NCBI RefSeq assembly: GCF_003334335.1 | Contig: NZ_QOWQ01000092.1 | Direction: 5' to 3' (one strand) | Length of the DNA stretch: 2,232 bases | DNA from: Escherichia coli | GTDB taxonomy: Bacteria; Pseudomonadota; Gammaproteobacteria; Enterobacterales; Enterobacteriaceae | Shown: piece by piece, positions 1 through 2,232 of the stretch | Numbering within the stretch: position 1 is the first letter of the stretch | Layout of the letters: each line of letters opens with the position of its first letter | The notes under the pieces: model-generated | What the model was told of the DNA's origin: nothing | The model's input: the letters and a program-made list of their open reading frames with translations, nothing else | Databases searched by the model: none | Position numbers and translations under genes: made by a program

Positions 1-2232
1 GGAGGCTCACACCTTTGACTCTGTGAAATTTATTCTGACCACCGCTCTCGCCGGTGGTCTGCTGGCTGTTCCCCTGCAGATCAAAAACATTCAGCAGAAC
101 GGGATCACACCAGAAGATATCAGCAAGGAAATTAACGGGTATTACTGCTGTTTTTATACTGCCTTTTTCCTTATGGCGTGTTCTGCATGCGCACCATTGA
201 TCGCGTTACAGTACGATATTTCACCGTCACTGATGTGGTGGGGCGGGTTGTTGTACTGGCTGGCTGCATTAGTGACGCTGCTATGGGCGGCCAGCCAAAT
301 CCAGGCGCTGAAAAAACTGACCTGTGCCATCAGCCAGACACTGGAAGAACAACCGGTGCTCAACAGTAAATCGTGGCTGACCAGTTTGCAAAACGATTAC
401 AGCCTTCCTGACTCACTGACGGAGCGCATCTGGCTGACGCTCATTTCTCAACGGATTTCCCGGGGAGAGCTGAGGGAATTTGAACTGGCAGACGGAAACT
501 GGTTACTGAACAATGCCTGGTATGAAAGAAACATGGCAGGGTTTAACGAACAGTTGAAAGAGAACCTGTCATTCACACCTGATGAACTGAAAACGCTCTT
601 CCGGAACCGCCTGAATTTATCACCGGAAGCGAATGACGATTTTCTCGATCGTTGCCTGGACGGCGGTGACTGGTATCCCTTTTCAGAAGGTCGCCGTTTT
701 GTATCATTCCATCACGTGGATGAGCTTCGTATCTGTGCCTCCTGCGGGCTGACAGAAGTACATCATGCCCCGGAAAATCATAAGCCGGATCCGGAATGGT
801 ACTGCTCCTCTCTTTGTCGCGAAACAGAAACACTGTGTCAGGAAATTTATGAACGCCCTTACAACAGCTTTATTTCCGATGCAACGGCGAATGGTCTGAT
901 TCTCATGAAACTGCCGGAAACCTGGAGTACAAATGAGAAAATGTTTGCTTCCGGAGGGCAGGGACATGGGTTTGCCGCTGAACGGGGAAACCATATTGTC
1001 GACAGAGTCCGTCTGAAAAACGCACGGATCCTCGGTGATAATAATGCCAGAAATGGAGCAGACAGACTGGTCAGCGGAACAGAAATCCAGACGAAATATT
1101 GTTCAACTGCAGCCCGTAGCGTCGGTGCGGCATTCGACGGACAAAACGGACAGTATCGTTACATGGGAAATAATGGCCCCATGCAACTGGAAGTCCCCCG
1201 TGATCAGTATGCCGGCGCTGTTGAAACCATGAGGAATAAGATCCGCGAAGGTAAAGTACCCGGTGTAACCGATCCCGCAGAAGCATCCCGGCTGATTCGT
1301 CGGGGACATCTGACTTATACTCAGGCCCGTAATATCACCCGGTTCGGGACCATCGAATCGGTCACTTATGATATTGCCGAGGGTTCGGTTGTCAGTCTGG
1401 CGGCCGGAGGGATCAGTTTTGCCCTGACGGCATCGGTCTTCTGGCTCAGCACCGGCGATCGCGATGCTGCCCTGCAGACAGCTGCTGTCCAGGCAGGAAA
1501 AACCTTCACCCGCACACTGGCTGTCTACGTCACAACCCAGCAACTCCACCGGCTCAGTGTTGTTCAGGGTATGCTGAAGCACATTGATTTTTCGACTGCC
1601 AGCCCGACTGTCCGACTGGCTCTTCAGAAGGGGACCGGTGCAGGAAATATCAGTGCCCTGAACAAAGTGATGAAGGGTACGCTGGTGACATCTCTGGCAC
1701 TGGTAGCTGTCACAACCGGCCCTGACATGATCAAAATGTTGCGGGGACGGATCTCCGGTACGCAGTTCATCAGGAATCTTGCCGTGGCATCTTCCGGTGT
1801 GGCAGGTGGTGCTGTCGGGTCAGTGGCGGGCGGAATACTGTTCAGTCCACTGGGACCATTTGGTGCACTGACAGGGCGTGTGGTTGGCGGTGTTCTGGGG
1901 GGAATGATTGCCTCCGCTGTATCAGGAAAAATTGCCGGAGCGCTGGTTGAAGAAGATCGCGTCAAAATTCTGGCAATGATTCAGGAGCAGGTGACATGGC
2001 TTGCCGGCAGTTTCCTGCTGACCGGACATGAGATTGAAAATCTGAACGAGAATCTGGCCCGTGTTATCGATCAGAATGCTCTGGAGATCATTTTCGCCGC
2101 CGGTATACAACAACGGGCCGCGACCAATATGTTAATCAAACCACTGGTGGTCAGTATCATCAGGCAACGCCCCGTCATGGAATATGATGCATCCCATCTC
2201 GGCAATATGGTTAACCGACTGGAAGAAGCATT
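1..2232 (+). CDS. Large uncharacterized membrane protein, internal fragment (partial at 3' end, probably also at 5' end); codon phase begins at nt 2
   Basis: Manual translation of the frame starting at nt 2 gives 743 consecutive sense codons (nt 2-2230) with no stop; the other two + frames hit stops within the first 26 nt (TGA at 16-18 and 24-26). Leu is mostly CTG and the translation has protein-like features (hydrophobic helix-length segments, Cys4 motif, GxxxG repeats). Translation begins EAHTFDSVKFILTTALAGGLLAVPLQI... and ends ...HLGNMVNRLEEA. Product identity is unassigned. Confidence 0.85.
29..292 (+). other. N-terminal cluster of three predicted transmembrane helices (aa 10-27, 46-69, 77-97 of the window translation)
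   Basis: Three uncharged hydrophobic stretches of 18-24 residues: FILTTALAGGLLAVPLQI, GYYCCFYTAFFLMACSACAPLIAL, LMWWGGLLYWLAALVTLLWAA, separated by short polar loops; the third is followed by the positive residues KK (aa 104-105). Judged by eye, no predictor run. Confidence 0.6.
734..817 (+). other. Putative zinc-ribbon-like Cys4 motif (C245-x2-C248 ... C268-x3-C272) with flanking His residues
   Basis: Translation reads HHVDELRICASCGLTEVHHAPENHKPDPEWYCSSLCRETETLC: two Cys pairs 19 residues apart, His at aa 237, 238, 254, 255, 260, and a fifth Cys at aa 279. The spacing matches a small zinc-ribbon knuckle pair; metal binding is inferred, not shown. Confidence 0.45.
1388..1447 (+). other. Internal hydrophobic, Gly/Ala-rich segment (aa 463-482), possible transmembrane or membrane-inserting helix
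   Basis: VVSLAAGGISFALTASVFWL is uncharged and helix-length, followed by the polar STGDRD. A shorter hydrophobic stretch LVTSLALVAVTTG follows at aa 561-573 (nt 1682-1720). Confidence 0.4.
1778..1948 (+). other. Glycine-zipper (tandem GxxxG) hydrophobic region, aa 593-649; candidate membrane hairpin or oligomerisation module
   Basis: LAVASSGVAGGAVGSVAGGILFSPLGPFGALTGRVVGGVLGGMIASAVSGKIAGALV contains G602-x3-G606-x3-G610, G621-x3-G625-x3-G629-x3-G633, G630-x3-G634 and G642-x3-G646. About 55 residues carry only two charged side chains (R626, K643), with a Pro-Leu-Gly-Pro turn-like centre at aa 616-619. Confidence 0.55.

Follow-up and report, generated by a model that had tools for sequence, protein, structure and literature searches.

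What gene runs without a single stop codon through an entire stretch of Escherichia coli DNA, why is it missing from the list of open reading frames (ORFs) compiled for that stretch, and what might its product do? These questions are raised by a 2,232-nucleotide (nt) piece of contig NZ_QOWQ01000092.1 (assembly GCF_003334335.1), referred to below as the window. The window is the inside of full-length yeeR, the middle gene of the published agn43-yeeR-irmA operon. That yeeR is a real, conserved gene of 838 codons is beyond reasonable doubt and already known; the window ORF is ordinary and annotated, and the new part is a domain reading of YeeR, which is unpublished. The best overall reading, to which about an even chance is given, is that YeeR is a membrane-tethered conflict protein that senses or cuts nucleic acids.

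Identity of the gene and its alleles

An earlier note, made from the sequence alone, had claimed that the frame starting at nt 2 is open throughout, and re-translation confirms this, with 743 sense codons and 0 stops between window positions 2 and 2232 (+ strand). Stop counts by frame are 34, 0 and 39 on the + strand and 22, 37 and 16 on the - strand, and the probability of 743 codons without a stop at the base composition of the window is ~9e-16. The six-frame codon comparison proposed in that note points the same way: E. coli-like codon usage is confined to the nt-2 frame, which has a log-odds score of +0.20 against E. coli usage, the remaining five frames scoring -0.02 to -0.43. All 15 listed ORFs (>=40 aa) are out of frame or antisense, as had been stated, and none (0/15) lies in the nt-2 frame of the + strand, because the ORF tool drops ORFs running past the ends. 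Stop counts and codon usage led to the rejection of the antisense and out-of-frame ORFs as real genes.

Extension in both directions, likewise proposed earlier, places the start of the gene 263 nt before the window and its end 22 nt after it. In the complete genome of E. coli 1428 (locus L001), the window corresponds to L001:12001-14232, within a coding sequence (CDS) at 11738-14254 that begins with an ATG codon preceded by GGAG. The expectations of a gene longer than 2.2 kb and a product of more than 743 aa thus proved correct, since the annotated CDS spans 2,517 nt, has both its start and its stop outside the window and encodes 838 aa (WP_001315618.1), with conserved homologs of ~820-850 aa in many taxa. 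The remark that such a size is unusual for a bacterial membrane protein does not hold, 838 aa being not especially unusual. RefSeq labels WP_001315618.1 "hypothetical protein", and a few newer records carry the label "YeeR family protein". Membership of the YeeR family follows from identity to the annotated CDS, and a 99%-identical cluster representative (P0001) carries PF27347 (YeeR_C); the Pfam and RefSeq names convey no function.

Many E. coli chromosomes contain a copy of the window that is 100% identical, and 2,582 of 5,426 complete genomes give a megablast match. The K-12 gene, described as "inner membrane protein YeeR" of the CP4-44 prophage, is the same gene in the same place after flu/agn43, and is known to be truncated (PMC6480617, PMC4807369). 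Residues 1-507 of the MG1655 product (b2001, 510 aa) are 100% identical to full-length YeeR, after which the sequences diverge; the deletion removes residues 508-838, that is, the end of the nuclease-like domain described below, all glycine-zipper helices and the C-terminal domain, all of which are intact in the window allele. The 3' part absent from K-12 is present at >=80% coverage in 2,161 of the 5,426 complete genomes, in up to six copies, and the copy number per genome (up to 5-6) tracks the number of island copies. In E. coli RM13322 (NZ_CP050498.1 2961586-2965084), yeeR is split in two by the IS3-family element IS600; this insertion and the K-12 deletion point to frequent inactivation of yeeR. 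A 4,050-nt contig of a metagenome-assembled genome labelled 'Oxalobacter sp.' (JAHAYL010000019.1) also encodes a YeeR_C region, at 99% identity to the E. coli protein; a mis-binned E. coli contig is a more likely source than a genuine Oxalobacter gene.

Domain architecture and the nuclease-like core

The domain reading is based on a family alignment of 40 homologs (30-68% identity), a second, more diverse alignment of 37 proteins (20-47% identity), and AlphaFold 2 (AF2) models of the whole protein (predicted local distance difference test, pLDDT, 78) and of residues 300-560 (pLDDT 79). The architecture predicted from these sequences and models, which we hold with good confidence, comprises the following features in window coordinates (TM, transmembrane).

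2..2230, + strand: internal part of the yeeR CDS, codons 89-831 of 838 (no stops, codon score, 100% identity to WP_001315618.1)
14..295, + strand: last three of ~six predicted N-terminal TM helices, residues 93-111, 138-156 and 168-186 (hydropathy, AF2 helices)
350..727, + strand: tandem winged-helix-like region, residues ~205-330
734..838, + strand: Cys cluster, C333-x2-C336 ... C356-x3-C360 ... C367 (invariance in homologs)
950..1381, + strand: PD-(D/E)xK nuclease-like core and conserved extension, residues 405-548
980-982, 1061-1063 and 1088-1096, + strand: putative active-site residues E415, D442 and Q451-T-K453, respectively
1385..1732, + strand: long helices with hydrophobic segments 550-568 and 647-665 and a QQLHR motif at nt 1538-1552 (AF2, hydropathy)
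1742..1942, + strand: RGRISxxQF motif followed by a glycine-zipper helical hairpin, residues 669-735 (GxxxG count, invariant glycines)
1952..2230, + strand: helical C-terminal domain, residues 739-831, with seven further residues past the window (conservation, AF2)

Residues ~400-548 are extremely conserved among the 40 homologs (GHGFAAE...GADRLVxGxxIQTKY...LEVPxDQY), and the AF2 model arranges them in the canonical alpha-beta-beta-beta-alpha-beta order of the PD-(D/E)xK core fold, with E415 on alpha1, D442 directly before beta2 and Q451-x-K453 on beta3. These four signature residues (E415, D442, Q451 and K453) are invariant in the 40 homologs, and the equivalent columns, together with E485-V-P and others, are invariant in the 37 more distant proteins. 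From the model, a restriction-endonuclease-like fold over residues ~405-548 is very likely. Catalytic activity of this core is plausible, and it is not assured because Q replaces the acidic residue of (D/E)xK. A glutamine at that middle position is known from Mrr-type enzymes. The PD-(D/E)xK nucleases with which the core was compared are Hjc/Hje, the Mrr-like AF1548, NgoMIV, the FokI cleavage domain, CdiA-CT(Bp1026b) and HamA.

Searches with the YeeR protein against NCBIfam returned no match, and a Pfam-A scan of residues 89-831, with a model set that did not include PF27347, gave C19orf12 alone, a weak match over the glycine-zipper region (E=0.024); Mrr_cat (PF04471, Mrr-type restriction endonuclease) was not matched in that scan. 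The PHROGs scan yielded just low-complexity tape-measure matches. A search of PDB sequences gave nothing with the single sequence, and with a profile it gave matches to glycine-zipper segments only (a tape measure protein, E=7e-4; SlyB; Rhs1).

Membrane topology and flanking domains

The earlier description of the product as a membrane protein holds: several strongly hydrophobic helices are present. The label is nevertheless incomplete, as ~360 central residues are predicted to be cytoplasmic and nucleic-acid-binding or nuclease-like. The TM helices exceed 1.5 in Kyte-Doolittle (KD) 19-mers both in E. coli YeeR and in the 40-sequence family average, and the sequence of this N-terminal hydrophobic region is poorly conserved in the 40-sequence alignment. 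K- and R-rich loops (51-62, 112-137 and beyond residue 186) alternate with loops poor in both (82-92 and 157-167), by which residues 187-548 are assigned, with fairly high confidence, to the cytoplasm; the Cys cluster and the nucleic-acid-binding domains also fit this placing. Behind the TM helices, the winged-helix-like region shows a helix-helix-beta-hairpin arrangement in tandem, as in winged helices of the SelB C-terminal type. It is followed by the Cys cluster, whose five residues (C333, C336, C356, C360 and C367) are all invariant in the 40 homologs; with weak Foldseek matches to PHD zinc fingers, the cluster probably binds zinc as a zinc ribbon or treble clef.

Downstream of the core, AF2 predicts helices at residues 539-572, 575-604 and 638-668; hydropathy over 550-568 and 647-665 reaches 1.5-1.7 in the family average, the linkers are strongly positive, and Q602 and R605 are invariant (40 homologs). 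Residues 680-735 contain eight overlapping GxxxG motifs, and G694, G698, G713 and G717 are invariant in the same alignment. Repeated GxxxG motifs in paired hydrophobic helices are the hallmark of glycine-zipper membrane proteins, and membrane insertion of this hairpin is possible. The three C-terminal hydrophobic segments (550-568, 647-665 and 693-733) are of only moderate hydrophobicity, contain much Gly, Ala and Ser, and are separated by strongly positive linkers; they may be permanent TM hairpins or a bundle that stays latent until it inserts. The last domain, for which AF2 predicts helices throughout 739-831, has five invariant residues among the 40 homologs (L761, E765, N797, P802 and R811) and lies within the block conserved with the Lactococcus and phage homologs described below.

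The portable YeeR_C module

A search of 5.8 billion proteins found 414 homologs, typically of 820-850 aa, in Enterobacteriaceae, Pseudomonas, Shewanella, Methylomonas, Burkholderiales, Xanthomonadales and others, all of which carry precomputed PF27347. Residues ~405-811 form a portable module (Pfam YeeR_C) that recurs across phyla, on islands and plasmids and with varied fused domains. When 1.84 billion representatives of 50%-identity clusters were searched with a profile built from residues 395-838, matches spanning the whole profile were obtained to 2,228 clusters (E<=1e-3), 724 of them reaching E<=1e-30. The matching proteins are 356-1,203 aa long and carry the module at either end or in the middle, and YeeR_C is present in at least 328 of ~100,000 species genomes, which include Proteobacteria, Campylobacter, Bacillota, Lentisphaeria, Riflebacteria and Eggerthellaceae.

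On a conjugative plasmid of Lactococcus, a 665-aa homolog annotated as 'glycine zipper family protein' shows 33% identity over YeeR residues 408-811 (tblastn) and lies directly behind a WYL regulator, and YeeR_C copies are also present on plasmids of Selenomonas and Monoglobus. A 650-aa homolog of an Oscillospirales phage likewise shows 33% identity, over ~425 aa (tblastn). This gene, the sole copy of the module from a phage genome (PV036458.1; L011:7401-9353), stands directly after the endolysin gene and before a DNA invertase gene, a typical moron or lysogenic-conversion site. Phages were rejected as the main habitat of the module, which was found in 1 of 50,697 phage genome records and in 6 IMG/VR loci. 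Fusion partners of YeeR_C comprise Sel1 repeats, TerB, FGE-sulfatase, zinc ribbons and the N-terminal domain of BnzA (Bunzi). The BnzA domain is fused to YeeR_C once in one protein (P0155) and as three repeats in another (P0181), and it was also observed in the gene just downstream on the Lactococcus plasmid (L012:9923-10780). A constant module with variable appendages and a patchy distribution is the pattern seen for conflict systems.

Relation to the candidate system PDC-M09 and to defence systems

YeeR matched no PADLOC model of a validated anti-phage system, just those of the candidate PDC-M09B. The matches are partial, weak and co-linear (E=4.8e-6 and 4.3e-5), and the Lactococcus homolog matches the same models in the same weak, co-linear manner. 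The PDC-M09B sequence contains KHGEIAEQ, ADYMIDGVDVQSKF, RGEINADEF and Gly-rich helices, and thus resembles YeeR in its HGxxAE helix, D-x8-QxK[FY] strands, PxD, RGxIxxxxF motif and glycine-zipper helices. Conversely, a diverse YeeR_C hidden Markov model (HMM) recognises 95 of the 115 PDC-M09B proteins, in two segments that are co-linear, and the best alignment covers the HGxxAE helix and everything up to and including the QxK strand. Comparison of the two families by hhalign gave a probability of 2% with one sequence and a marginal 35% with the family. YeeR and PDC-M09B are probably distantly homologous, a claim based on the co-linear HMM matches and common motifs and not on hhalign.

YeeR is not, however, a member of PDC-M09. 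Its best E-value against PDC-M09B is 4.8e-6, compared with 5e-214 for a true member, with no full-length match, and PDC-M09B differs from it in having ~481 aa, in lacking the N-terminal TM, winged-helix and Cys-cluster parts and in being partnered by PDC-M09A. The neighbours of E. coli YeeR are agn43 and irmA; PDC-M09A adjoins YeeR only in three loci (L017-L019), inside a separate, complete PDC-M09 pair. In one of them, from Enterobacteriaceae (L017), the order is WYL regulator, PDC-M09A (3e-120), PDC-M09B (5e-214), a 37-nt gap, YeeR and dndBCDE. The complete candidate system of WYL regulator, PDC-M09A and PDC-M09B occupies L017:6761-9964, and the dndBCDE phosphorothioation cluster lies within 13402-18470; like the YeeR ortholog, they are located in the cargo slot of a CP4-like island, a slot taken in E. 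coli by agn43-yeeR-irmA. The PDC-M09A protein of this locus has a weak match to alpha-xenorhabdolysin (XaxA).

Defence systems that combine membrane and nuclease components include Zorya (ZorAB+ZorD), Kiwa and TM-bearing variants of Shedu. The logic they would share with YeeR is that of a nuclease or nucleic-acid sensor stationed at the inner membrane, where foreign DNA enters, which is a functional analogy only: YeeR is one polypeptide with an added glycine-zipper region, and PADLOC detected no homology to any of them. The literature search returned nothing relevant on PDC-M09, or on YeeR in connection with defence or nucleases.

Gene neighbourhoods of yeeR homologs

The eight loci that were inspected have no common neighbour, and genes for toxin-antitoxin systems, defence or mobility occur in them repeatedly, as listed here by host.

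Methylomonas: HicAB, TIR, IS66
Pseudomonas: RES-Xre
Deefgea: HepT-MNT, IS21, integrase
Herbaspirillum: BrxE, GIY-YIG, PLD, integrase
Stenotrophomonas: transposases
Serratia and Enterobacteriaceae: setting in CP4-type islands

When 1,160 ORFs from 80 species loci were clustered de novo, no universal partner gene emerged, only small neighbours specific to subfamilies. In 11 of these 80 loci, the yeeR homolog has a WYL regulator gene upstream of it in the same orientation (padloc WYL, 4e-25). An obligatory partner was also sought among the genes of ~285 aa that follow the homologs in Lactococcus and Selenomonas; these are unrelated, and the idea was rejected.

The agn43-yeeR-irmA operon

In E. 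coli 1428, the gene order is agn43 (encoding Ag43), yeeR and an IrmA-family gene, followed by DUF905, DUF932, antirestriction, yeeS, yeeT, cbeA/cbtA and yeeW genes, a neighbourhood of the CP4-44 island type. In strain EC958, agn43-yeeR-irmA has been described as a single transcript under OxyR/Dam control, with supporting data from CFT073; YeeR was termed uncharacterized in the same study and was dispensable for the release of IrmA (PMC4807369). Both the operon and an uncharacterized yeeR also appear in PMC6480617. In oxyR mutants yeeR is derepressed (PMC4807369, PMC8614746). Induction was 64-fold for flu and 4.6-fold for yeeR in PMC8614746. Being co-transcribed with the phase-variable agn43, yeeR would switch ON and OFF together with Ag43 in EC958.

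No terminator was called between agn43 and yeeR in a scan of the intergenic region. Upstream of the window, this region contains a hairpin at L001:11637-11665 with a perfect 11-bp stem (GGUCCCGGUCA-UCA-UGAUCGGGACC); it is embedded in a fold of -39 kcal/mol (z=-2.3) and lacks a T tract. The hairpin could tune the expression of yeeR relative to that of flu. In Serratia sp. UGAL515B_01, an IrmA-family gene (L016:9163-9591) lies upstream of yeeR, not downstream, with no adjacent autotransporter, indicating that the yeeR-irmA pairing outlasts the link to agn43.

Proposed function and alternative explanations

The proposed mechanism begins with ~six N-terminal TM helices that would anchor YeeR in the inner membrane and present ~360 cytoplasmic residues with tandem winged helices, the Cys cluster and the PD-(D/E)xK-like core. 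Invading nucleic acid would be bound at the membrane by the winged helices and the core and probably cut there, and the glycine-zipper helices might either serve as a tether and for oligomerisation only, or insert on triggering and permeabilise the membrane. The outcome would be anti-phage or anti-plasmid defence, exclusion or abortive infection, and the probability of a conflict role of this kind is put at, or slightly below, one half. A bolder version, which we regard as speculative and rather improbable, makes YeeR an immune protein encoded by a single gene and the prototype of a large, hitherto unrecognised effector family of >2,000 clusters that combine PD-(D/E)xK and glycine-zipper parts, with a membrane anchor in YeeR itself. 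Through the co-transcription of yeeR with agn43, present in some strains at least, the resistance to phages or plasmids that it conferred would vary in phase with Ag43-mediated aggregation, and K-12, the standard host of phage work, would have lost it through the yeeR deletion.

Several observations weigh against the conflict reading. A glutamine stands where (D/E)xK usually has an acidic residue, and no nuclease emerged from Foldseek, Pfam-A, NCBIfam or PDB sequence searches. The C-terminal hydrophobic helices are borderline (KD 1.3-1.7), with both linkers positively charged. The Dyella locus shows neither mobile nor defence genes, and the context evidence as a whole comprises anecdotal loci and one clustering of 80 loci, with no calibrated score of defence-island enrichment. 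The module is rare in phages, PDC-M09 is itself a guilt-by-embedding candidate, and no experiment was found that ties YeeR or YeeR_C to a phenotype.

The alternative that survives best, still an unlikely one, is abortive infection by a sensor and pore, in which the core would recognise nucleic acid or a ligand without cutting and the glycine zipper would depolarise the inner membrane, killing or arresting the infected cell. It would account for the glutamine at the (D/E)xK acidic position, and it draws on the glycine-zipper hairpin and RGRISxxQF motif being conserved as strongly as the core, on marginally hydrophobic C-terminal helices with positive linkers resembling those of latent alpha-helical pore formers, and on the Gly/Ala-rich neighbour PDC-M09A with its weak XaxA-like match. 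However, the invariance of E415, D442, K453, E485 and D489 at 20-47% identity is more easily fitted to a catalytic site than to a binding surface.

Slightly less probable again is a housekeeping role for mobile elements, with YeeR providing membrane-anchored DNA processing or tethering for an island or plasmid (in transfer, entry exclusion or post-segregational addiction) rather than anti-phage immunity. The constant location of enterobacterial yeeR on CP4-type islands with DUF932, antirestriction, RadC/YeeS and CbtA/CbeA genes would suit such a role, as would the homolog on the conjugative Lactococcus plasmid, the up to 5-6 copies per E. coli genome that follow island copies, and the rarity in phages. 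On the other hand, many homologs lie far from recognisable transfer genes, no relaxase, coupling protein or antitoxin was found among the conserved neighbours in the 80 loci, and truncation or insertion-sequence disruption is tolerated in K-12 and many strains (PMC9431211). Immune modules are, moreover, the more usual setting of WYL regulators and of variable sensor-like fusions.

The operon itself invites a further explanation, in which YeeR is an inner-membrane accessory that aids Ag43-mediated aggregation and biofilm formation or the export of IrmA. Co-transcription with agn43 and irmA, derepression in oxyR mutants (PMC4807369, PMC8614746) and the lack of a terminator between agn43 and yeeR are in its favour, but IrmA is secreted and Ag43 functional in MG1655 backgrounds without functional YeeR (PMC4807369), no autotransporter gene adjoins the homologs of Pseudomonas, Methylomonas, Dyella, Herbaspirillum, Deefgea and Firmicutes, and the predicted domains are cytoplasmic and nucleic-acid-binding, all of which make this explanation very improbable. 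Finally, a chance ORF or decaying pseudogene, as the truncated K-12 copy (called a pseudogene in PMC8614746) and insertions such as IS600 in RM13322 might suggest, has a negligible probability and is refuted by conservation for the full-length allele, given the chance expectation of ~9e-16, the coding-like codon usage, the preservation of length, motifs and domain order between E. coli and homologs as distant as those of Firmicutes, and the retention of the 3' half missing from K-12 in at least 2,161 of 5,426 complete E. coli genomes.

The protein could matter beyond this locus. Intact yeeR is present in ~40% of complete E. coli genomes, many pathogens among them and some with up to six copies, and is co-expressed with a major phase-variable adhesin; the domain reading, with the cytoplasmic core enclosed by membrane segments, gives this "uncharacterized inner membrane protein" a testable hypothesis with obvious point mutants. 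If true, it would define a widespread single-gene conflict module and provide a mechanistic handle on the PADLOC candidate PDC-M09.

Other features of the window

A scan for RNA families found none in the window. The longest antisense ORF (window 1103-1582, - strand; 159 aa, GTG start) lies opposite the most conserved part of yeeR and looks like a shadow ORF, as the antisense frames all have negative codon scores (-0.02 to -0.40) and contain 16-37 stops. The G+C content rises from ~0.49-0.51 in the 5' half of the window to 0.54-0.57 in its 3' part (1200-2232), and the GC skew jumps to +0.22-0.24 at 1650-2100. This shift is probably compositional rather than a mosaic junction, because it coincides with the Gly/Ala-rich zipper region and its GGN and GCN codons.

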